Shown here: in pieces, positions 1 to 37,965 of the stretch
How positions within the stretch are numbered: position 1 is the stretch's first letter
Layout: the number at the start of each line of letters is the position of its first letter
Assembly (NCBI GenBank): GCA_040757295.1
Contig: JBFLXH010000005.1
Location: 7,014 to 71,013 of the forward strand
Source of the DNA: Bacillota bacterium
GTDB taxonomy: Bacteria > Bacillota > PH28-bin88
Direction of reading: 5' to 3'
DNA length: 64,000 nucleotides
Position numbers and translations under genes: made by a program
The notes under the pieces: model-generated
What the model saw: the letters and a program-made list of their open reading frames with translations, nothing else
Database searches by the model: none
Told to the model about the DNA's origin: nothing

Positions 1-1610
1 TTTACCGCCTCTTTATCTTGAGGCTCTGCCTTGTCAGCCAGTTCCTTTAGAGTGCGTTCTGCCTGGTAGACCAGGGAATCCCCTTGGTTCCTGGCCTCGA
101 TGGCTTCTTTCCGCTTTTTGTCCTCCTCCGCATGGAGCTCGGCATCCTTCATCATCCGCTCTATTTCCGTTTCGTTTAACCCGCTGGATGCGGTGATGGT
201 GATGGCCTGCTGTTTGCCCGTACCAAGGTCTTTGGCAGTGACATGCACTATTCCGTTGGCATCGATATCAAACTTAACTTCGATTTGAGGAATACCTCTA
301 GGAGCAGGGGGGATGCCGGTTAACTGGAAGCGCCCCAAAGTTTTGTTGTCTCCTGCCATGGCCCGCTCTCCCTGGAGCACATGGATCTCCACCGTGGTCT
401 GGTTATCCGCCGCAGTAGAAAAAATCTGGCTCTTAGAAGTGGGAATAGTGGTATTCCTTTCAATCAGCTTGGTGAATACCCCTCCCAGGGTTTCGATCCC
501 CAGAGAAAGGGGAGTTACATCCAAAAGCAAGACATCTTTGACCTCTCCGGCTAACACTCCGGCCTGGATGGCTGCCCCCAGAGCCACACACTCATCTGGG
601 TTAATCCCTTTATGGGGCTCTTTGCCTGTGAGCCGTTTTACTGTTTGTTGGACAAGGGGCACCCTGGTTGATCCCCCTACCAGAAGCACCCGGTCAATGT
701 CTTCGGGTTTCATTCCTGCATCAGCCATAGCCTGCCTGGTCGGGCCTTCAGTTTTAGCCACCAGGTCGGCGATTAATTCCTCAAATTTAGCCCTTGTCAA
801 GGTAAGATCCAAATGCTGGGGACCGTCTTGGGTTGCCGTAATAAACGGCAAATTAATATTAGTGCTGGTTACTGAAGACAGCTCGTGCTTGGCCTTTTCT
901 GCCGCCTCTTTCAACCGCTGCATGGCAATCTTGTCTTTTGCAAGGTCAACGCCATGGGATTTTTTAAATTCAGCCACCATCCATCCGATGACCCGCTCAT
1001 CAAAGTCATCGCCACCCAGCCGGTTATTGCCGCTGGTTGCTTTTACTTCAAACACCCCGTCTCCCAGCTCCAGGATGGATACGTCAAAGGTACCTCCGCC
1101 CAGGTCATAAACCAGGATGGTATGGTCCTCTCCCTTATCCAACCCGTAGGCCAACGCAGCCGCCGTAGGTTCGTTAATAATCCGGAGGACTTCCAAGCCA
1201 GCGATTCTCCCGGCATCCTTGGTAGCTTGCCGTTGGCTGTCGGTAAAATAAGCCGGCACAGTGATCACAGCCTGGGTAACTTTTTCTCCCAGGTAAGCTT
1301 CGGCGTCGGCTTTCAGCTTCTGTAAAATCATTGCGGAGATCTCCTGGGGAGTATAAGCCTTTTCATCGATCTTGACTTTATGGTCTGAGCCCATATGGCG
1401 CTTGATAGAGATTACTGTCCTGTCCGGGTTGGTAATGGCCTGTCTTTTGGCAACTTGCCCCACCATCCGTTCTCCGTTTTTGGCAAAACCAACTACCGAT
1501 GGGGTGGTGCGAGCGCCTTCCGCGTTAGGTATTACTACGGCCTCTCCGCCTTCCATCACAGCCACACAGGAATTAGTGGTTCCCAGGTCAATTCCGATAA
1601 CCTTTCCCAT
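1..1610 (-). CDS. dnaK: Molecular chaperone DnaK (Hsp70), 3'-truncated by the window edge. The N-terminus [14 protein letters not shown] is encoded at 1610 downward.
   Basis: Minus-strand ORF from ATG at 1608-1610 preceded by AGGAGG. The N-terminal Hsp70 motif is present. The ORF runs off the window start. The plus-strand ORFs 313-1325 are antisense artefacts. Confidence 0.9.
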
Positions 1611-1642
1611 TTCCACAATACCTCCTAGTTTTCACAGATATG

Positions 1643-2272
1643 TTATTCCCTGGTTTGCAAAGCTTTTGCTACTTTAACCATTGCCGTACGGAGCACTTTT
1701 TCTTTCAGCAAATAGCCCTTAAGCACCTGTTCTATTATTTTATTATCTTCATGATCTTCTGTTTCTACTTGCATCACGGCATGGTGGGTTTCCGGGTTAA
1801 AAGGATGGCCAACGGTTTCCATAGCCATTAGCCCCTGCTTTTCCAAAATACCCAATAATTGCCGGTAAATCATATCGACCCCATTAATAAAGGAGGAAAG
1901 TTCTCCCCCTTTGGCTGCAGCCTCAAGGGCCCGCTCCAAATTATCCAATACAGGCAACAGTTCAGCAATTAACTTTTCTGTCGCATAATTGACCAGTTCT
2001 TCCTGTTCGCGGCGGACACGGCGCCGGTAATTCTCGAAGTCCGCCTGCAGCCGCTGTAATCTATTAAACAGGGCTGCCGCTTCCTCGGTTTTTTCCGCTA
2101 ACTTGCTGGCCAGCTGTTCCTCTGGTCTGCCCGCCGCCTGTTCTTCCAGCCTGGATTGAGCTTCGATGTTTTCCGCTCCGTTCTCTGCTTCCTGGCGAGC
2201 CTCTTGTTCTCTTCTTTCCTGCACTTCCTGAGGGTGGCAATTTTTATCTTCATGGCGATTTTCATTGGTCAT
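1643..2272 (-). CDS. grpE: Nucleotide exchange factor GrpE
   Basis: Acidic N-terminus and the GrpE motif LLPVLDNLERAL. ATG at 2270-2272 sits 11 nt after AAAGAGG. An upstream in-frame GTG (2284) overlaps the RBS. Located between dnaK and the chaperonin gene. Confidence 0.85.
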   Translation of the reverse strand: MTNENRHEDKNCHPQEVQERREQEARQEAENGAENIEAQSRLEEQAAGRPEEQLASKLAEKTEEAAALFNRLQRLQADFENYRRRVRREQEELVNYATEKLIAELLPVLDNLERALEAAAKGGELSSFINGVDMIYRQLLGILEKQGLMAMETVGHPFNPETHHAVMQVETEDHEDNKIIEQVLKGYLLKEKVLRTAMVKVAKALQTRE

Positions 2273-2298
2273 GACCAGTCTCACCTCTTTTCAAAAGG

Positions 2299-3858
2299 CT
2301 ATTCCAAATCCATCTTTTTGGAGCTGTTTTCTTCCTTCATTTTGATAATGGTGTCAATTCGCAAAATGGCTTCAGAAACTTCAGCCGCCGTTTTTAACGC
2401 ATAAATCTTCACCAAGACAGGATCGGTAATACCAAGGGAATACATATTTGCCACTTCACCGGTGTCGCAATTAAGGGCAAAGGCCGGAGATTTATGCTCG
2501 GACTGGGCAGCCAGCACATCCCCCAGCTTTTCTAAGGGGTTAAAACCCGCATTGACTACAATCTGAGCAAAAGGCCTTTGCAGAGCTGTTACCACGCAAT
2601 CAACCCCATAAGCGGCCATTCCCCGCATTTCCGCTTTTACTCTTTCAACCTCCCTGGCAGCAGCCAGCTCAATGGATCCCCCGCCTGGCACAATGCCGGA
2701 TTTTACCGCGGCCTGGACTGAGGCAGCCGCATCTTTGGCGATCCGCTCACGTTCACCCACCACCTCTTCAGTGGCAGCTCCCACCAGAATGGTAGCCATG
2801 GGTTTGCCTGACCCGCCAATAATCCGGACATGCTCCAGTTTCTCGTCTAACAAGACCACTTTTGCAGACCCTAAGAATCTTGCTAATTCGGCAGGTGTCC
2901 TTCTTAAACCGGTGCGCTTGACGGCCCGAGCTCCCGTATGTTCTGCGGCCTTCACCAGTTCTTTGTGAGAAACCCGCTGGACCACCATTACTCCCGCATC
3001 AGTCAGCATTTCCTCTGCTTCGTCGTCCACCCCGCGGTCAACCAGTATTACCTTCACTCCGAGAGCAATGACTTTCTGCAGGTTTGACCTGAATTCTTCC
3101 CGCAGGGCAAGGTACCGCTGAAACCCTGTTTCGGTGGCCAAGGCTTCTTCCTCCACGGTCTCTGGTTCAAGGGCGTCATCTACAACCAGCACGGGTGCAT
3201 CAGTTACCTCCCGCGGCATATCCTTGTTCATAGTTTCTTTATTAATGATTAGTCCCTGAAAAACCATATTGGCTGCCGCAGCCTGGGCTACTACCGCTTC
3301 GGCCAACTGGAATTTGGGTTCCAACAGTTTTTCTTTGCCGATGAGCTTGGCGGCTTCCACTACCAGGTTAGCAATATCCTGGTACTCCCGTCCGGCAACC
3401 AAGGCAACCTCCAAGAGCCTGGGATCCTCTATTGTGTCTACAGGCTTTGCAACCTCATTAAAGTATTCGATGGCCCTTTTTACCCCTGCCCTGATCCCCT
3501 CGATTACCCGGGCCACAGGAACACCCTTAATCACCTGTTCCAAACCGCTGTTGACAAGGGCTCCGGCCATAATCGTGGTTGTAGTGGTGCCATCACCAAT
3601 CTCATCCTGTTGGGCTTTGGCGGCGTTGATCAGCATCCTGGCAGCAGGATGATTGACCTCCATCAAATTAAGGATGGTCACACCATCATTGGTAATGACC
3701 ACCTCGCCAAAGCGATCTACTAACATGGTATCCAAACCTTTAGGGCCGATGGTGCCTTCCACAGCCGAAGCAATCGCCCTAATGGCATTGGCATTGGTGA
3801 TAAGGGCGGCTAACCGCTCGTCTACCTCTGCGTTTTGGTTAACCTGTTTCACACTCAT
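2299..3858 (-). CDS. Group II-like (thermosome/TCP-1 type, bacterial 'group III') chaperonin, 519 aa
   Basis: GPKGLDTMLVD...VITNDGVTIL...NHPAARML...AKAQQDEIGDGTTTT matches the group II Cpn60/TCP-1 signature, not GroEL. Embedded between hrcA and grpE with a 26-nt gap to grpE and no separate terminator. Confidence 0.8.
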   Translation of the reverse strand: MSVKQVNQNAEVDERLAALITNANAIRAIASAVEGTIGPKGLDTMLVDRFGEVVITNDGVTILNLMEVNHPAARMLINAAKAQQDEIGDGTTTTTIMAGALVNSGLEQVIKGVPVARVIEGIRAGVKRAIEYFNEVAKPVDTIEDPRLLEVALVAGREYQDIANLVVEAAKLIGKEKLLEPKFQLAEAVVAQAAAANMVFQGLIINKETMNKDMPREVTDAPVLVVDDALEPETVEEEALATETGFQRYLALREEFRSNLQKVIALGVKVILVDRGVDDEAEEMLTDAGVMVVQRVSHKELVKAAEHTGARAVKRTGLRRTPAELARFLGSAKVVLLDEKLEHVRIIGGSGKPMATILVGAATEEVVGERERIAKDAAASVQAAVKSGIVPGGGSIELAAAREVERVKAEMRGMAAYGVDCVVTALQRPFAQIVVNAGFNPLEKLGDVLAAQSEHKSPAFALNCDTGEVANMYSLGITDPVLVKIYALKTAAEVSEAILRIDTIIKMKEENSSKKMDLE

Positions 3859-3896
3859 TCAGCTTTTTCTCACTTCCTTATAAACATTCCGGTTAG

Positions 3897-4928
3897 TTAC
3901 AGCATTTGCTTTATAGCGCGGGAAAGGGCCGCAGCTACAAATTCCACCAAACTGACCGCCTTGGCATAGTCCATGCGGGTTGGGCCAATCAGGCCTACAG
4001 TCCCCAGCAGTTGGCCATCAAGCTGGTAGGTTGTTGTAACCAAGCTGCATTCGGAAATCCCTTCATGATTATTCTCCCCGCCAATCCGGATATTTAATCC
4101 AATATTGCCAGGATGCTCTAGGAGATCCCGCAGCACTTTGCCTTCCTCCAGAATGGACAGCAAACTCTTGATTTTAGTAATATCCTTAAATTCTGGCTGA
4201 TTAAGGATATTAAGGGTGCCTCCCAAAAAAATCCTGTCATCCTTATTATCTGACGTCAACTGCTCCAAGGCCTCCAAAACCGTGCTGGCCAGCTTCTTTT
4301 GGAAAGACAGTTCAGACAGGATTTCATCAAAGGTATCCTCTTTCAACTGCTCCAATGCCAAGCCTTTTAGCTTGCTGTTTAATACTCTGGATACCCGCTC
4401 CAGATCATGCTCTGTTATCCCCGGGTGAATATCCAAGACCTGGTGTTCAACCACCCTGGTATTTGTGATTACTACCAAAAGGGCTTTTGTTGGCTCCACC
4501 TGCAGAAGCTGGATACGCTGGAAAGTGCTTCGGCCCATGGATGGAGCCAGAATAACAGCAGTTTGATGTGTCATTAATGATAAAAGATTTGTAGAGCGCT
4601 GGATTAAATCCTCAATCTCAGTCATCTTCTGGGCAAATCGCTCTTGAATATACTCCCGCTCCTGAGGAGTGAGACAATACTTTTCCATCAAACAATCCAC
4701 ATAGTAACGATAACCCCTATTAGAAGGGATGCGTCCTGCTGAAGTATGGGGTTGCTCGATGTAGCCCAATTCTTCCAAGTCAGCCATCTCATTGCGGATG
4801 GTAGCGGGACTGACGCCAAGGTTATACTTCCGGGCAATGGTGCGGGATCCTACAGGCTCAGCGGTAAACACATAATCATTGACAATAGCTGCCAGCACTT
4901 TTTTCTTCCGCTCGTCAAGACCCATCAT
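3897..4928 (-). CDS. hrcA: Heat-inducible transcription repressor HrcA
   Basis: N-terminus MMGLDERKKKVLAAIVNDYV, HrcA family. ATG at 4926-4928 lies 4 nt after AGGAGGTG. The CIRCE operator is immediately upstream. Confidence 0.85.
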   Translation of the reverse strand: MMGLDERKKKVLAAIVNDYVFTAEPVGSRTIARKYNLGVSPATIRNEMADLEELGYIEQPHTSAGRIPSNRGYRYYVDCLMEKYCLTPQEREYIQERFAQKMTEIEDLIQRSTNLLSLMTHQTAVILAPSMGRSTFQRIQLLQVEPTKALLVVITNTRVVEHQVLDIHPGITEHDLERVSRVLNSKLKGLALEQLKEDTFDEILSELSFQKKLASTVLEALEQLTSDNKDDRIFLGGTLNILNQPEFKDITKIKSLLSILEEGKVLRDLLEHPGNIGLNIRIGGENNHEGISECSLVTTTYQLDGQLLGTVGLIGPTRMDYAKAVSLVEFVAAALSRAIKQML

Positions 4929-4942
4929 TCCCCACCTCCTTG

Positions 4943-4969
4943 TTAGCACTCCATCCTCATGAGTGCTAA
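4943..4969 (-). promoter_or_regulatory. CIRCE operator (HrcA binding site), TTAGCACTC-N9-GAGTGCTAA
   Basis: Perfect 9-bp inverted repeat with a 9-bp spacer, directly downstream of the -10 box and upstream of the hrcA RBS. Confidence 0.85.
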
Positions 4970-4980
4970 TGCCTAATTAA

Positions 4981-5009
4981 AAAATATCACTAGCTCCTTT
5001 TTTTGTCAA
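4981..5009 (-). promoter_or_regulatory. SigA-type promoter of the hrcA-chaperonin-grpE-dnaK operon (-35 TTGACA, 17 nt, -10 TATTTT)
   Basis: On the minus strand: TTGACA (5004-5009), a 17-nt spacer, TATTTT (4981-4986), then CIRCE. Confidence 0.5.
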
Positions 5010-5011
5010 GA

Positions 5012-6154
5012 CTAAGGAAGAGTTAACAAGAACTTCTGAAATGCCTCGTTGGCCAAAGGAAGACCCTGTCTGGTCAGGCGAAACCTTCCCCGATGTTTTT
5101 CAATTAAACCCAAGGTCATCAGCTTCGCCAACTGGCTGCCGTATACTTGCTCAAAGGGGACGCCGAAACGATGCTGAAAATCCATGGGGTGGTAGCCTTC
5201 CAAGAGCCTTAAACCCAAAAAAACGGTTTCAGCCATCTCAATTTCCGGCGGCAATGACTCCTTCTCCCCCACCGGCAATACTCCGCTGTTTACCATAACC
5301 AGGTAGGCATCCAGGTCTTTGGTGTTGGTCCAGCGCATCGACCCAAAATGGGAGGAGGCAGCTACACCTAAACCCAGGTACTCTTGGTTGCGCCAATAAA
5401 GGAGGTTATGTACAGATCTAAAACCTGGACGGGCAAAGTTGGATATTTCATAATGCAGGTATCCGGCTCCCGTCAAAGTATGAATGGTTAGTTCATGCAT
5501 GTTAAGAACAGTCTCTTCTTCAGGCAGAGACAGCAATCCCATTTTAAATTGATCTTCCCACAGGGTGCCTTCCTCCAGCTTTAATCCATAAGCCGCCAAG
5601 TGCTCCGGCTCCAAAGCAACCGCCCAGTTCAGGGTGTCCTGCCAGTCTTCCAGGCTTTGACCAGGCAACCCATACATCAAGTCAAGGTTAATATTAGCAA
5701 ATCCCGCTTTTCTGGCCGCTCTTACAGTTATTTCAGTGTCCCGGGAGTTATGCGCCCGGCCCAGAAAGGATAAAAGCCGGTCCTGGCGGGCCTGGGCGCC
5801 AATAGACAAGCGGTTAAAGCCAGCTTGCCTCAGGGTTTCCAGTTGAGACTGTTCAATTGTAGCCGGATTGGCTTCCATGGTGATTTCCGCATCCGGTACC
5901 AGTTCAATCAACCCCATGATGCCAGTCAGGATCTCCGCCAACTGTTGCGGGCCTAAGAGGCTGGGAGTACCTCCGCCAAAATAAACCGAGACAGCCCTCC
6001 GTCCTGTTACAGCAGGATGATATAAAGCGAGTTCGGCGATTAGTCCCTGCCCGTAAGCCTGGTACCTGTTTTCCTCAGTTGGAAAGGAAATAAAATCACA
6101 GTAATTGCATTTTTGCCGGCAAAAAGGGACATGCAGATAGACGCCAAAATCCAT
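5012..6154 (-). CDS. hemW: Radical SAM heme chaperone HemW/HemN-like (oxygen-independent coproporphyrinogen III oxidase family)
   Basis: N-terminal CxxxCxxC radical-SAM motif (VPFCRQKCNYCDF). AAAGGAG lies 7 nt before the ATG at 6154. The position between lepA and hrcA matches B. subtilis. Confidence 0.85.
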   Translation of the reverse strand: MDFGVYLHVPFCRQKCNYCDFISFPTEENRYQAYGQGLIAELALYHPAVTGRRAVSVYFGGGTPSLLGPQQLAEILTGIMGLIELVPDAEITMEANPATIEQSQLETLRQAGFNRLSIGAQARQDRLLSFLGRAHNSRDTEITVRAARKAGFANINLDLMYGLPGQSLEDWQDTLNWAVALEPEHLAAYGLKLEEGTLWEDQFKMGLLSLPEEETVLNMHELTIHTLTGAGYLHYEISNFARPGFRSVHNLLYWRNQEYLGLGVAASSHFGSMRWTNTKDLDAYLVMVNSGVLPVGEKESLPPEIEMAETVFLGLRLLEGYHPMDFQHRFGVPFEQVYGSQLAKLMTLGLIEKHRGRFRLTRQGLPLANEAFQKFLLTLP

Positions 6155-6191
6155 ATGATACTCCTTTTTGAAATAATTATAAACCTAGTAT

Positions 6192-6221
6192 AACACAAAT
6201 AAGGACTGCATTTTGCAGTCC
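6192..6221 (-). terminator. Intrinsic terminator/attenuator hairpin (GGACUGC-AAAAU-GCAGUCC + UUAUUUGUGUU) 45 nt upstream of the hemW start codon
   Basis: 7-bp perfect GC-rich stem 6203-6209/6215-6221 with a U-rich tail on the minus strand. It sits between an upstream promoter (6438-6467) and the hemW RBS. Confidence 0.5.
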
Positions 6222-6437
6222 AAAAGCTCCCACTTTGCCGTTTACCGAGGGTTTCTGAACCTGCCCCAGCAGGTGGGTATCCTACCAGCAGCTTTTGTCT
6301 ACCGAGCAAAGTCGGCCTGACAGCCACTTCCGGACACGGATTCCCGTAGAAACGGTGTTGGTTCAAAACACAAACGGTTCAACACGAACATCGCAGGATA
6401 TAATCTTTTTTTGCCCTTCAATCTACCGGGCAAAGCT

Positions 6438-6467
6438 ATCATACTATGATCCGGCTCCCGGTGTCAA
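6438..6467 (-). promoter_or_regulatory. SigA-type promoter (-35 TTGACA, 18 nt, -10 TATGAT) driving a ~220-nt leader toward hemW
   Basis: Minus-strand TTGACA (6462-6467) and TATGAT (6438-6443). Confidence 0.4.
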
Positions 6468-6499
6468 AGGGAAATTATTAGGAAAGGAAATCTAGGTGT

Positions 6500-6908
6500 T
6501 CAGTAGTCAGACCCCCTCGCCGCCTATAGCGGCACCATCGAAAGAGGAAAATTTTATTTTCAGGGTAGAATTCAAAATACCTCGGGGGATAATCGGATGC
6601 ATTGGTGATTACCGGAGTAAAACATTACGGCGCATTAGTTCAAAGAGCGAAGAAGCCTGAGGATAAGCCGCAGCCGGTGTTTGAGGGCCTTTAGGCCCGA
6701 GTTCCAGTGCGGCATGAATACCCGCAAGGGGCAGGCCGTCCGGCTAAGGCGGCAAAGCCGCCAAGCCTCCCGCACGGCGACTGAGCTCGTTCGGGAATAA
6801 GAGCGCCGTCCTTTACGGAGGTAACACCAAGGCAGCCAAGCAGCTTTCCTAAAAACCTGGGGACTTCTTTCTCCCCTTCTGACTTCTGACTTCTGACCAC
6901 TGACTACT
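6500..6908 (+). repeat. Structured non-coding repeat element, copy A (~410 bp), abutting the lepA stop codon
   Basis: About 88% identical to the reverse complement of 43023-43460. Flanked by an inverted repeat (GTAGTCAG ... CTGACTAC) and by TTCTGAC x3 heptamers. Contains conserved hairpins (GGCGGC-AAA-GCCGCC, CCCGCAAGGG with a GNRA loop) and has no credible ORF. Confidence 0.6.
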
Positions 6909-6910
6909 TA

Positions 6911-8722
6911 TCATTTATCTACTTGCAGCACAGCCATAAAGGCTTCCTGGGGAATTTCCACATTTCCTACCTGCTTCATCCGGCGCTTTCCTTCTTTTTG
7001 TTTTTCCAAGAGCTTCCGCTTACGGGTTACATCTCCGCCATAGCACTTTTCCAAGACGTTTTTCCGCATCGCCTTGACCGTATCCCGGGCGATAACCTTA
7101 TTCCCAATAGCAGCCTGGATAGGTATTTCAAAAAGGTGCCGGGGAATCAGTTCCCGCAGCTTTTCCGTCAGAGATCTGCCCCGGTGATAAGCTCTGTCCC
7201 CGTGAACAATACAAGACAAGGCGTCCACCACTTCTCCGGCAATAAGGATATCCAGCTTAACCAACTGGGATTCCCGGTAGCCAATTAACTCGTAATCCAT
7301 AGAGGCATAACCTCTGGTGCGAGATTTGAGGATATCAAAAAAGTCATAAATGATCTCACTTAGGGGCAATTCATATTCCAACATAACTCTTTTTTCCGAC
7401 AGGTATTCCATATTAGAGAACTGCCCGCGCCGGTCCTGGGCAAGTTCCATTACCGATCCCACATAGTCAGTAGGTACCATGATCGTGGATTTTACATAGG
7501 GCTCTTCCATCTTTTCAATGAAGTTTGGCAGCGGCAGGGCTGCAGGGTTATCAACCTCCAAGACTTCACCGTCAGTTTTCGTAACCCGGTAAATTACGTT
7601 GGGCGCTGTGGTTATTAGCTCCAGCTTGTATTCCCGCTCCAACCGCTCCTGGATTATTTCCATATGCAAAAGGCCCAAAAACCCGCAGCGGAAACCAAAG
7701 CCCAGGGCCAAAGAAGATTCCGGTTCAAAAACCAAAGAAGCGTCATTAAGTTTTAGTTTTTCCAAGGCATCCCGCAAATCTTCATACTGAGCCGTGTCTA
7801 CCGGATAAAGGCCGCAGAATACCATTGGCGTAACCCGGCGGTATCCCGGCAAAGGTAGGGCTGCCGGTGTCTTCCCACCGGTAATCGTATCCCCAACGCT
7901 GGTGTCTTTGACATTTTTGATACTGGCAGTCAAAAAACCTACTTCCCCTGCCGACAAGGATTCTGCTTGCCGCATGGCCGGTGTGAAAACCCCAACTTCA
8001 TTTACCTCAAAGGTTTTACCCGTGGACATCATTTTTATTTCCATACCCTTTTTTAAGCTGCCTTCAACTAAACGCACGTAAGGCACGGCGCCACGGTAGG
8101 AATCAAAATGAGAATCAAAAATAAGGGCCCTGAGCGGAGCCTCAGCGGCCCCAGTTGGAGGAGGAATTCTCCGCACGATAGCCTCCAAGATTTCCACTGT
8201 ACCGAGCCCGGTCTTGGCTGAGGCCAGAATAGCATCGGAAGCATCCAATCCAATAACGTCTTCAATTTCCCGCTTCACCCGCTCTGGGTCTGCGCTAGGC
8301 AGGTCTATTTTGTTAATAATAGGAATTATCTCCAGGTCGTGCTCCATGGCCAGGTAGACGTTAGCCAGGGTCTGAGCCTCAATCCCCTGGGAAGCGTCCA
8401 CTACCAGCAGGGCCCCTTCACAGGCAGCAAGGCTGCGGGATACTTCATAGGTAAAATCAACATGACCGGGTGTATCAATCAAATTCAATACATAATCCAG
8501 CCCGTCTTTGGCACGGTAGTTCAATCTAACAGCCTGTAACTTAATGGTAATCCCCCGCTCCCGCTCCAGGTCCATCTGATCCAATACCTGTTCAGCCATT
8601 TCCCGGGAAGAAAGGGCGCCGGTGAATTCAAGCAGGCGGTCAGCCAGGGTTGATTTTCCATGGTCAATATGGGCAATGATGCAAAAATTCCGGATAAACT
8701 GTTGTCCCCGAGCACCGCTCAT
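6911..8722 (-). CDS. lepA: Elongation factor 4 (LepA)
   Basis: [17 protein letters not shown] GTPase N-terminus, 603 aa, double stop TGATAA. Confidence 0.9.
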
Positions 8723-8746
8723 TTTTTAGCTCCCTTCAAATTGCAT

Positions 8747-8775
8747 ACTTCAAACTATTATAGCATTCCCTGTTG
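8747..8775 (-). promoter_or_regulatory. SigA-type promoter upstream of lepA (-35 TTGTTC, 17 nt, -10 TATAAT)
   Basis: Minus-strand TTGTTC (8770-8775) and TATAAT (8747-8752), about 25 nt upstream of the lepA RBS. Confidence 0.5.
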
Positions 8776-8805
8776 AAGGGAACAACTTAGCTACAGATTT
8801 AAGAT

Positions 8806-8925
8806 AAAAGTACTACTAGGAGTCAGAAGTCAGGAGCCAGAATGAAAGAGCGGTTTATCGTCTCGGGGCATTTTTGAATTCTGTCTACTGACTTCTGAAT
8901 ACCTGAATAGTAACAGATAAAAAGT
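8806..8925. repeat. Short (~120 bp) member/fragment of the same repeat family, with imperfect terminal inverted repeats (GAGTCAGAAGTCAG ... CTGACTTCTGAAT)
   Basis: Matches one end of the 410-bp elements (AGGAGTCAGAA ... ATTTTTGAATTCTG ... CTGAATAGTAACAG). Sits 1 nt after the murJ stop. Confidence 0.5.
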
Positions 8926-19349: not shown

Positions 19350-20717
<1,368 letters not shown>

Positions 20718-20736: not shown

Positions 20737-20913
20737 GCAAAACAAAACGCCTCTCCTATGACAAGAAGAGGCATGAAAACTTATCCTCCTCTTATCTCTC
20801 AGGAATAACCTGCAGGAATTGGCACCAATTCAAATAATCACGGCTATGCGGCCATCAATTCGAACGGTTGCCGGGCTTCATCGGGCCAGTCCCTCCACCT
20901 CTCTAGATAAGAG
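20737..20913 (-). ncRNA. SAM-I (S-box) riboswitch with intrinsic terminator, upstream of metY
   Basis: Minus strand reads CUCUUAUCUAGAGAGGUGGAGGGACUGGCCCGAUGAAGCCCGGCAACC ... GGUGCCAAUUCCUGCAGG ... GAGAGAUAAGAG, the canonical S-box core. It is followed by a GCCUCU ... AGAGGC hairpin + GUUUUGUUUUGC. Confidence 0.85.
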
Positions 20914-35158: not shown

Positions 35159-37642
35159 TTATTTAACTACAATGTTCAAAAGCTTATCGGGAACAGGGAT
35201 TACCTTGACGACCTCTTTGCCCGCCAGCAGTCTAATCACCCGATCCATGGACATGACCTCTTGTTCCATTTCACTTGCTGAGAGGTTAGCCGGTACCTGC
35301 ACCCGGTCCCTGACCTTCCCGTTAATCTGAACAACTATGGTTACTTGGTCCTGAACCAAAGCGGCCGGATCAAACTTAGGCCAGGGCCTCTGGTGAATGC
35401 TGCCGCTGCCACCTAAGGCCTGCCACATTTCTTCCGTAATATGGGGGGCAAAAGGAGCCAGCACATGAGTCAACAACCACAGACCTTCCTTTACCAGGGG
35501 TAGGTACTGCTGTTCCTGGGGCACTTGGTCCTTATAGTGATACAAAGCATTAACCATCTCCATGATGGCGCTGATGCCTGTATTAAAGTTAAACCGCTGG
35601 GTAATGTCATCGGTAATTTTTTTCACGCCGGCGTGGAGGGCGCGGCGCAGGTTTCTGGCCTCAACATCCAATTCCTCGTCTTGGTAAAGAGAGACTCCTT
35701 CCAATTGGGGAACATAATTATATACCAAACGCCAAACCCGGTTTAAGAAACGGAAACATCCTTCTACCCCCTGGTCACTCCACTCCAAGTCCCGTTCCGG
35801 GGGCGCGGCAAACAGGATAAACAACCGGGCTGTGTCTGCCCCGTATTTGGCGATAATCTCCTCGGGGCTCACGGTATTGCCTTTGGATTTACTCATTTTT
35901 CCGCCATCTTTCAGGACCATGCCTTGGGTCAGGAGGTTCTGGAAGGGTTCCTCATAATCCAGCCAATCCAAGTCATACAAAACCTTAACGAAGAAGCGGG
36001 AGTACATTAAATGGAGAATGGCATGTTCTACTCCACCGATATACTGGTCAACGTTCATCCAGTAATTAGCCTTCGCCTGGTCATAGACCTCCGGAGCATC
36101 CGGGCTGCAATAGCGCAAAAAGTACCAGGAAGAATCCACAAAAGTATCCATGGTATCTGTTTCCCGCTTAGCCGGTTTCCCGCAAGTAGGACAGGTGGTA
36201 TTCAGGAAATCGGGATTGGTGGTTAGCGGGGAATCTCCTGTTGGCTTAAATTCTACCTTTAGGGGAAGTTCCACCGGTAGGTCCTTTTCCGGTACAGGCA
36301 CTGCCCCACAGCCCTGGCAGTAAACAATGGGTATCGGCGCCCCCCAGTAGCGCTGGCGGGAAATCAGCCAATCCCGCAAGCGGAAATTAATCCTGCGCCG
36401 GCCAATCTGCTGCTGTTCCATGTGGTCGGCGATCCGCTCCTTAGCCTCCTCGCTAGGGAGCCCGTTAAATTGGCCGGAATTAACCATGAAACCCTCTTCA
36501 TCATACGCTGTGACTAGGGTTTCAGGGTCTAACTGTTCTCCTAAGGGTTGGACAACAATTCTCACCGGCAAACTGTATTTGCGGGAAAAGTCCAAGTCCC
36601 GCTGGTCATGAGCCGGCACTCCCATGACAGCGCCAGTGCCGTAGTCCATCAAAACGTAATTGGCTGTCCAGATAGGCACCTGTTCTCCATTCATGGGATT
36701 AATGGCATAAGCCCCGATAAAAATCCCTTCTTTTTCGGTATCCGCTGACGTGCGTTCCATTTCTTTCAGCTGGCGGACGCGCTGCACAAACTCCCGTACT
36801 TTGGCTTCATGCGGCGTTCCGGCGGTTAATTTCTCCACTAAGGGATGCTCCGGAGCCAACACCAGGTAGGTTGCTCCAAAAACCGTGTCATGGCGGGTGG
36901 TGAACACCGGGATGTCTTCTCCGGTATTCTCCACTGTAAAATTAAACTCTACGCCAGTGGAACGGCCGATCCAGTTCTGCTGCATGATTTTTACCTTTTC
37001 CGGCCACCCCGGCAATTTCTGCAAGTCGTCCAGCAGGCGGTCGGCATAAGCCGTGATCTTAAAAAACCACTGCTCCAGGTCCTTTTTCTCCACAATGGTG
37101 TCACAACGCTCACAAGCGCCATCTACTACCTGCTCATTAGCTAAGACGGTGGCACAGGAGGGACACCAGTTCACAGCAGCCTTCTTTTTATAAGCCAGGC
37201 CGTTTTTAAACAAGAGCAAAAATAGCCATTGGGTCCATTTGTAATAATCAGGGTGGCAAGTAGCAACTTCCCTGGCCCAGTCATAACTGATTCCCATCGC
37301 CTTTAACTGGCGGCGCATGTTGTTGATATTGCTCCAGGTCCATTCGGAAGGGTGGACATTACCATGCTTGATGGCCGCGTTTTCAGCCGGCAGACCAAAG
37401 GCATCCCATCCCATTGGATGCAGCACGTTATAACCCTGCATGGTTTTAAACCTGGCTACTACATCACCTATGGAGTAATTGCGCACATGACCCATGTGCA
37501 GGTTGCCGGAGGGGTAAGGGAACATTTCCAAGGCGTAGTATTTGGGCTTGTCTCCCCGCTCCGTTACTTTGTACAAGAGGTTTTTCTCCCATTCCTCTTG
37601 CCACTTTGCTTCCAGCTCGCGGAAATCGTAACGTTCTTTCAT
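35159..37642 (-). CDS. leuS: Leucyl-tRNA synthetase
   Basis: HMGH motif ([15 protein letters not shown]) and KMSKS motif. The start is taken at ATG 37640-37642 ([15 protein letters not shown]), 9 nt after GAGGTG. Confidence 0.9.
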
Positions 37643-37695
37643 TTTCTCCATCACCTCAAAGACTAAATAGGGACTAATTGTAGGATTCCGGCGCT

Positions 37696-37965
37696 AAAAG
37701 AAAAACCTCCCGCCCCATGCCTTGGGACGGGAAGTTTTATTTCCCGCGTTACCACCCAAATTGGTAATAATAAGTAATCATTACTACCCTCTCAAGGTTT
37801 ATTAACGGCAACCAGCCGGCACAGGTTAAAAATTCACCTGCACAGCTCCCGGGCGAGTTCAGCGGGCTTCCTGCTGTTTTTCACCATCCAACAGCTCTCT
37901 GATAAAGCTGACCCAGCCTAATGCTCCCGTTCACTGCTTTTCCCATTAGTTGATTAATAATTAAC
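37696..37965 (-). ncRNA. T-box riboswitch leader (Leu, specifier CUC region) with intrinsic terminator, upstream of leuS
   Basis: The T-box sequence AAUUUGGGUGGUAACGCGG is the reverse complement of 37746-37763. It is followed by the terminator CUUCCCGUCCC ... GGGGCGGGAGG + U-run. Stem I contains AGAGA and GAACUCGCC. Confidence 0.7.

Follow-up and report, generated by a model that had tools for sequence, protein, structure and literature searches.

The bacterial group III chaperonins were described in PNAS in 2010 by Techtmann and Robb, as cited in passages of two later papers (PMC5904260, PMC5220055). The structure of a member from Carboxydothermus, Ch-CPN, was solved in 2017 (Nature Communications; PMC5635000), and an ancestor of the group, ACIII, was resurrected in 2025 (Molecular Biology and Evolution, MBE; PMC12696368). 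By 2017 group III chaperonins had been listed for 195 species, and their genes were reported to lie in the DnaK operon "with one exception" (PMC5635000). Here we describe a candidate of this family on a 64,000-nucleotide stretch of DNA from an uncultured Bacillota bacterium (assembly GCA_040757295.1, contig JBFLXH010000005.1, positions 7,014 to 71,013 of the forward strand), in the following called the window. The gene, which we name cpn, occupies positions 2299..3858 of the minus strand. Its product is very probably a group III chaperonin orthologous to Ch-CPN that would work as proposed below, and the gene very probably takes second place in an hrcA-cpn-grpE-dnaK-dnaJ operon.

Ch-CPN forms a lidded hexadecamer of two rings of eight subunits, closes on ATP binding as well as with adenylyl imidodiphosphate (AMPPNP), shows little cooperativity, and needs no co-chaperonin to refold malate dehydrogenase (PMC5635000). 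Double octameric rings were also observed for ACIII by cryo-EM (PMC12696368). Group II chaperonins close on ATP hydrolysis, show negative inter-ring cooperativity, and have prefoldin as a delivery partner (PMC5635000). For group III chaperonins a hand-over of substrates from DnaK or DnaJ has been proposed (PMC5635000, PMC5220055).

The window protein resembles Ch-CPN in its clade, its domain order, and the place of its gene between hrcA and grpE, as well as in the two-helix lid, the shortened nucleotide-sensing loop with an arginine, the catalytic aspartates, and the pivot leucine. It differs by an additional residue in the stretch 169-175 and by its C-terminal tail (…KMKEENSSKKMDLE). The two proteins are 47% identical, and the window protein, which comes from an uncultured organism, is known from its gene alone. 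ACIII is the closest solved sequence (60% identity) and is identical at all hallmark positions, but it is a synthetic reconstruction whose apical domains are not resolved. With the group II chaperonins (thermosome, Mm-cpn, CCT/TRiC) the window protein shares the three-domain subunit, a built-in helical lid, and the overall fold, with a template modelling (TM) score of about 0.8. By analogy, mostly eight-fold rings and independence of GroES would also be held in common. In contrast to the window protein, the sensing loop of group II is six residues longer and carries a lysine, and the lid is four residues longer and contains a beta-strand. Identities to group II are only 28-37%, and the scores of the window protein stay below the thermosome cut-offs of NCBIfam. 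The closest counterpart of the whole locus is the Bacillus-type dnaK operon (lepA-hemN/hemW, hrcA-grpE-dnaK-dnaJ-prmA-rsmE-mtaB). Gene order, operator sequence, and the position of the operator between promoter and hrcA are alike, whereas the window operon has an extra gene, the chaperonin, between hrcA and grpE.

Family assignment and predicted structure

An earlier reading of the window based on its letters and open reading frames (ORFs), here called the sequence-only reading, had placed a 519-aa ORF between hrcA and grpE. This ORF was confirmed with an ATG start. Its product matches the Pfam family Cpn60_TCP1 (PF00118) over its full length (residues 29-508, E 2.7e-107). Among the NCBIfam models those for thermosomes rank first, with about 285-288 bits (best 287.7), yet these scores lie under the cut-offs of 400-671. 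The CCT models reach 140-215 bits as opposed to cut-offs of 456-800, and the GroEL models, whose cut-offs are at least 352 bits, reach 150-176 bits on two equatorial pieces only. In a sequence search against the PDB the top match was 9rwq, the reconstructed group III ancestor ACIII (E 3.9e-197), followed by Ch-CPN (5x9u and 5x9v, E 1.3e-141), the group II ancestor ACII (9rwp, E 7e-83), and thermosomes (E about 1e-63). Identity over aligned columns falls in the same order, from 60% for ACIII and 47% for Ch-CPN to 37% for ACII, 28-29% for thermosomes, and 25-27% for GroEL. In the PDB, 9rwq bears the molecule name "Ancestral Group II Chaperonin (ACII)". By sequence it falls with group III, and the original publication assigns 9RWQ to ACIII, contrary to the PDB label (PMC12696368).

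A neighbour-joining tree was computed from 128 sequences over 501 columns, with GroEL as root. In every one of 100 bootstrap replicates the window protein, Ch-CPN, and ACIII formed a clade from which ACII and the two thermosomes and two GroELs included were excluded. The tree comprised the window protein, named homologues, and every full-length representative at 50% identity that an exhaustive HMMER search had returned. References were Ch-CPN, ACIII, ACII, and the two thermosomes (from the PDB alignments) together with the GroELs of E. coli and a member of the Sedimentisphaerales; these reference sequences, taken over from HMMER alignments, are without their termini, and outgroups are few. The phylogeny proposed as a check in the sequence-only reading thus placed the protein in group III, outside both GroEL and group II. 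The label "group II-like" given there is acceptable as a description, but as a classification it has to be replaced by group III, given the failed thermosome cut-offs and the missing group II sensing loop. The three signature blocks cited for it, GPKGLDTMLVD (residues 38-48), ITNDGVTIL (55-63), and GDGTTT (88-93), are all present, although the last does not discriminate because GroEL has GDGTTT too. The PROSITE signatures of TCP-1 appear to be matched only in part and were given no weight.

The hallmarks of group III were defined from Ch-CPN by An et al. 2017 (PMC5635000), and an alignment revealed all of them in the window protein. Compared with ACII and the two thermosomes, the nucleotide-sensing loop is shorter by exactly six residues. 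On this loop R157 aligns with R155 of Ch-CPN, which contacts the gamma-phosphate and replaces the lysine of group II (PMC5635000). An arginine occupies this position in 30 of 31 clade members and is invariant in 50 homologues. The lid, whose inspection had likewise been suggested, is present in its group III form. The segment counts 56 residues as in Ch-CPN, compared to 60 in group II and 43 in GroEL, i.e. it is 4 residues shorter than the former and 13 longer than the latter. Its hydrophobic tip, L240, F246, Y249, and F256, corresponds to L237, F243, Y246, and F253 of Ch-CPN. Furthermore, D58 and D376 match the catalytic residues D56 and D373, and L442 matches the inter-ring pivot L439. Besides R157, the residues L240, F256, and D376 and the motifs GDGTT (G88-T92) and GGG (392-394) are invariant in the 50 homologues, with T93 near-invariant.

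An AlphaFold2 model built on the alignment of the 50 homologues reached a predicted local distance difference test (pLDDT) value of 87.4 and a predicted TM score (pTM) of 0.81, and places the lid helices at residues 237-240 and 243-265. The best Foldseek matches of this model were the closed and open forms of Ch-CPN (5x9v_A and 5x9u_A), with TM scores of 0.88-0.93 and a root-mean-square deviation of 2.4 A. Group II chaperonins came next at about 0.8.

From the biochemistry and structure of Ch-CPN a mode of action can be proposed. The subunits would form two stacked eight-membered rings, and the hydrophobic tip of the built-in helical lid (L240, F246, Y249, F256) would catch unfolded proteins. 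ATP binding, presumably sensed by Arg157 on the shortened loop, would close the lid without a GroES-like partner, and D58 and D376 would assist in ATP hydrolysis. Such a chaperonin would be expected to show little cooperativity and to be able to refold a model substrate.

The window protein is a typical group III chaperonin and no outlier in any respect, and the family is already known. The exact protein is even present in public assemblies, where it carries no annotation; its gene lies on contig 149 of Logan SRR32167787 and on a contig of 50-200 kb. Our analysis thus adds one fully typical member from an uncultured Bacillota to a family for which an ancestor has been resurrected and crystal structures exist. 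The family nevertheless continues to be of interest with respect to its clients, its relation to DnaK/DnaJ and GroEL, and its origin, either as an ancestral relic or by an early archaeal transfer. In particular, clients and co-chaperones are still poorly known, as had been remarked in the sequence-only reading and as is stated in the literature (PMC5220055, PMC5635000).

Operon arrangement and proposed control

The minus strand of window positions 1-6154 carries a tight run of genes with cpn between hrcA and grpE. It begins with hemW (5012-6154; HemW confirmed by Pfam and NCBIfam), which is separated by a gap of 86 nt (4926-5011) from hrcA. The latter (3897..4925) encodes the heat-inducible repressor, with 342 aa from an ATG at 4925 (Pfam HrcA 1.3e-65; TIGR00331 354 bits, cut-off 197). 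Downstream of cpn follow grpE for the nucleotide exchange factor (1643..2272; 209 aa from an ATG at 2272; Pfam GrpE 3.3e-49, NCBIfam GrpE equivalogs above cut-off) and the 5' part of dnaK (1..1613, the N-terminal 537 codons), which is cut by the start of the window. Contig L003 (Logan SRR32167787) matches window positions 1..8880 with 100% identity and extends the operon by the remainder of dnaK (608 aa in all), dnaJ, prmA, rsmE, and mtaB; its gene table names HSP70 and DnaJ. Gene calls on this contig, with 342 aa for HrcA and 209 aa for GrpE, match the starts given for the window. In the program-made ORF list a longer hrcA ORF opens with a GTG at 4949, inside the operator described below. The ATG at 4925, located 5 nt past the Shine-Dalgarno sequence AAGGAGGTG, is likely the real start of hrcA.

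Between hemW and hrcA a perfect copy of the controlling inverted repeat of chaperone expression (CIRCE) was found at 4943..4969. It reads TTAGCACTC-N9-GAGTGCTAA, with ATGAGGATG as spacer. Even with three mismatches allowed, the 64 kb contained no second match, and 100 shuffles yielded none at all. The claim that cpn lies downstream of a perfect CIRCE was therefore correct, as were the other factual points of the observation. A promoter-like site of the sigma-A type was detected at 4981..5009 on the minus strand by its match to the sigma-70-like consensus, with TTGACA, a spacer of 17 nt, and an extended -10 element TGnTATTTT. This site begins 2 nt past the stop codon of hemW and is also present in L003. 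On the coding strand the -10 hexamer is followed by 11 nt, CIRCE, 1 nt, AAGGAGGTG, GGGA, and the ATG of hrcA. Features of HrcA/CIRCE operons are thus present, with hrcA itself and a CIRCE between the promoter-like site and the first gene.

The intergenic gaps are short, with 38 nt between hrcA and cpn and 26 nt between cpn and grpE. Each contains a Shine-Dalgarno sequence, which in the case of grpE is AAGAGGTGA, located 8 nt 5' of the ATG. A pattern scan found neither a promoter-like nor a terminator-like site in the two gaps, in agreement with the earlier statement that cpn has no promoter or terminator of its own. Terminator-like matches elsewhere in the region were no more frequent than in shuffles. 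According to a passage of the review PMC5904260, which cites Techtmann and Robb 2010, both chaperonin types are regulated by HrcA.

From the positions of operator and promoter-like site we propose that the whole operon is transcribed from a single sigma-A-type promoter, with a 5'-end a few bases upstream of CIRCE. HrcA bound to CIRCE just downstream of this promoter would repress transcription, as established for HrcA/CIRCE operons. Heat or folding stress would then inactivate HrcA, and the chaperonin would be made along with GrpE, DnaK, and DnaJ.

Relatives of cpn are widespread. Of 2,843 matching clusters at 90% identity, the best 120 by score were 66-91% identical along the full length. About 30 full-length 50%-identity clusters from the exhaustive HMMER search score above the thermosome level, and at least 400 metagenome stretches encode a relative. 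They belong to Desulfotomaculia, Heliobacteria, Thermincolia, Neomoorellales, and Negativicutes. Judged by this gene, the nearest named relatives are Clostridiales bacterium PH28_bin88 (76%) and Zhaonella formicivorans (73%). A scan of a genome collection with the single protein returned one orthologue, that of PH28_bin88, and one GroEL; its patterns were too specific. The sequence-only reading had regarded such chaperonins as rare and limited to Carboxydothermus and a few other Firmicutes. The likeness to Carboxydothermus is borne out by the Ch-CPN clade and the same place in the operon, whereas the presumed rarity is contradicted by the 195 species listed by 2017 and by the metagenome stretches found here. 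Our survey shows the family to be common in anaerobic Bacillota.

The genomic context was tallied for 80 metagenome loci and for 5 other loci, with counts referring to the testable loci. The gene directly upstream of cpn is hrcA in 69 of 70 cases, and a CIRCE with at most two mismatches was found in all 69 loci that could be tested. It is perfect and at the same position in L001, L003, L004, and L006. The single exception to the close spacing is L017 (hrcA 3484-4494, cpn from 5001), in which 507 nt instead of tens of bases separate the two genes. The order lepA-hemW-hrcA-cpn-grpE-dnaK-dnaJ-prmA-rsmE-mtaB also occurs in Zhaonella formicivorans (Neomoorellales), Heliomicrobium modesticaldum, and two metagenome contigs.

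Weighing of the assignment and of alternative explanations

Several points weigh against the proposed identity, operon control, and mode of action of cpn. The tree is distance-based and its inner nodes are weak, with support of 0-15% for nested clades and 56% for a superclade of 53 members. The mode of action is transferred from a homologue that is merely 47% identical, albeit with the same hallmark residues. Promoter and operon structure are deduced from consensus patterns and gene spacing, and an internal promoter of another type may exist. The Shine-Dalgarno sequence of cpn is rather distant from its ATG (about 12 nt). As far as can be judged from the sequence, no feature contradicts family membership.

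It is improbable, but worth consideration, that the family assignment is right and cpn is expressed mainly from its own promoter inside hrcA instead of being controlled by CIRCE and HrcA. The dnaK operon of Bacillus subtilis has internal promoters, and our promoter scan was limited to sigma-70-type consensus sites. However, within this scope no such site was found on the coding strand between 3858 and 4949, and the gap between hrcA and cpn is merely 38 nt. Furthermore, the adjacency of the two genes (69 of 70 loci) and the presence of CIRCE (69 of 69) speak against an independent expression, as does the HrcA control of both chaperonin types stated in the cited passage of PMC5904260. We consequently favour expression of cpn from the CIRCE-controlled operon promoter.

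If the dnaK operon had recently taken up a genuine thermosome gene of group II from an archaeon, this would explain why the thermosome alpha and beta models are the best among the NCBIfam models and why the predicted structure has a thermosome-like overall fold (TM score about 0.8). Yet we consider this origin very improbable. The scores of 285-288 bits are far under the cut-offs, and the identity to thermosomes of 28-29% compares with 47-60% to the group III references. The group II references are excluded from the clade in all bootstrap replicates, and the window protein is devoid of the six-residue stretch of the nucleotide-sensing loop and the four-residue lid insertion that characterize group II. 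The GC content of cpn (0.50-0.54) matches that of dnaK and the surrounding genes, and the insertion site is shared with distant Bacillota. A group II thermosome from a recent archaeal transfer was hence rejected on the basis of GC content, shared insertion site, and phylogeny.

Selection on cpn was estimated from the ratio of non-synonymous to synonymous substitution rates (dN/dS). In comparison with its orthologue in L008 (86% protein identity) this ratio is 0.12. The values for the neighbouring genes against the same locus are 0.13 for hrcA, 0.17 for grpE, 0.18 for hemW, 0.06 for lepA, and 0.03 for dnaK. These ratios indicate purifying selection on cpn. Since the insertion site is common to distant Bacillota, the insertion is ancient. 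It has been maintained, and represents neither a recent transfer nor a decaying copy.

It seems scarcely credible that cpn is a surplus chaperonin gene, in decay or without function, that the operon simply retains. Redundancy is conceivable, because bacteria with such a gene have been reported to possess GroEL/GroES too (PMC5220055). In our searches, which included tblastn with E. coli GroEL, neither groES nor groEL was found in the 64 kb window or in L003. Against decay, the ORF is intact and full length, and the catalytic and lid residues are all conserved, with R157, D376, GDGTT, and GGG 392-394 invariant in the 50 homologues. In addition, dN/dS is as low as for hrcA, and the same position is kept in hundreds of lineages. 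Low dN/dS and conserved catalytic residues led us to reject a pseudogene or redundant copy. A divergent, still GroES-dependent GroEL (group I) paralogue can practically be dismissed by the phylogeny, in which GroEL is the outgroup, and by the 13-residue lid insertion of the apical domain that is absent in GroEL, since the matches of the GroEL models (150-176 bits) and of E. coli GroEL in tblastn, which would favour it, are confined to two equatorial pieces with 25-27% identity, and groES was not found adjoining cpn.

Variant operons and other elements of the window

In part of the loci cpn is not accompanied by the following genes of the operon. It is not followed by grpE in 11 of 73 testable loci and not by dnaK in 9 of 59. 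A complete type-I DnaJ is encoded by the next gene in 11 loci, and in L010 according to its ORF listing. The hrcA-cpn-dnaJ arrangement accounts for about 15% of the sampled related metagenome loci and comprises L010, L022, L025, L059, L063-L065, L069, L071, L072, L083, L087, L089, L090, and L091. No grpE or dnaK was found within ±5 to 10 kb of the variant cpn loci, and lepA and hemW were usually absent as well. In the ORF listings, rsmE-like and mtaB-like genes are located further downstream in most of these loci and prmA in some. The stop codon of cpn overlaps the TTG start of dnaJ in L064 (cpn 4866-6455, dnaJ 6452-7621), L083, L089, and L091. Over ±10 kb the arrangement is retained in a JGI contig and in two NCBI assemblies. 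Examples of lineages with this arrangement are GCA_040771825.1 and GCA_012840505.1. The variant loci share one neighbourhood of the cpn tree, which includes metagenome-assembled genomes labelled Candidatus Fermentithermobacillaceae. The same label is attached in the nr database to the proteins P0276 and P0279, of which P0279 is encoded on L091.

Our survey thus identified hrcA and CIRCE, not dnaK, as the invariant neighbours of cpn, which provides a lead for finding the partner chaperone. Since hrcA and CIRCE are near-universal while about 15% of the loci are without grpE and dnaK and have cpn directly followed by dnaJ, it may be speculated that the fixed partner of the chaperonin is the HrcA regulatory circuit together with a J-protein, and not DnaK itself. 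We consider this doubtful. The DnaJ proteins of the variant loci retain the HPD motif, and its conservation argues for a DnaK elsewhere in these genomes, where it is probably encoded. If the speculation were true, HrcA could be maintained in its active state by the group III chaperonin, in place of GroEL or jointly with it, and the operon would be a self-contained thermostat. The chaperonin could also receive substrates via DnaJ.

Two proteins of the representative library, P0148 (1057 aa) and P0199 (1047 aa), each contain two complete Cpn60/TCP-1 units in tandem. These could be real fusions or merged gene calls.

Three structured RNA elements were found elsewhere in the window. The minus strand carries a 6S RNA (SsrS) gene at 6223-6402, which separates lepA from hemW a short way upstream of the heat-shock operon and scored 87 bits in Rfam compared to a gathering score of 46. 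It has its own promoter-like site at 6467..6438 (11 of 12 consensus positions) and a terminator-like hairpin with a T-run at 6221..6203. An S-adenosylmethionine (SAM, S-box) riboswitch at 20789-20913 on the minus strand lies upstream of a gene for a pyridoxal phosphate-dependent enzyme of Cys/Met metabolism (19350-20666). A T-box leader at 37720-37943, also on the minus strand, precedes the gene for leucyl-tRNA synthetase (35159-37654).

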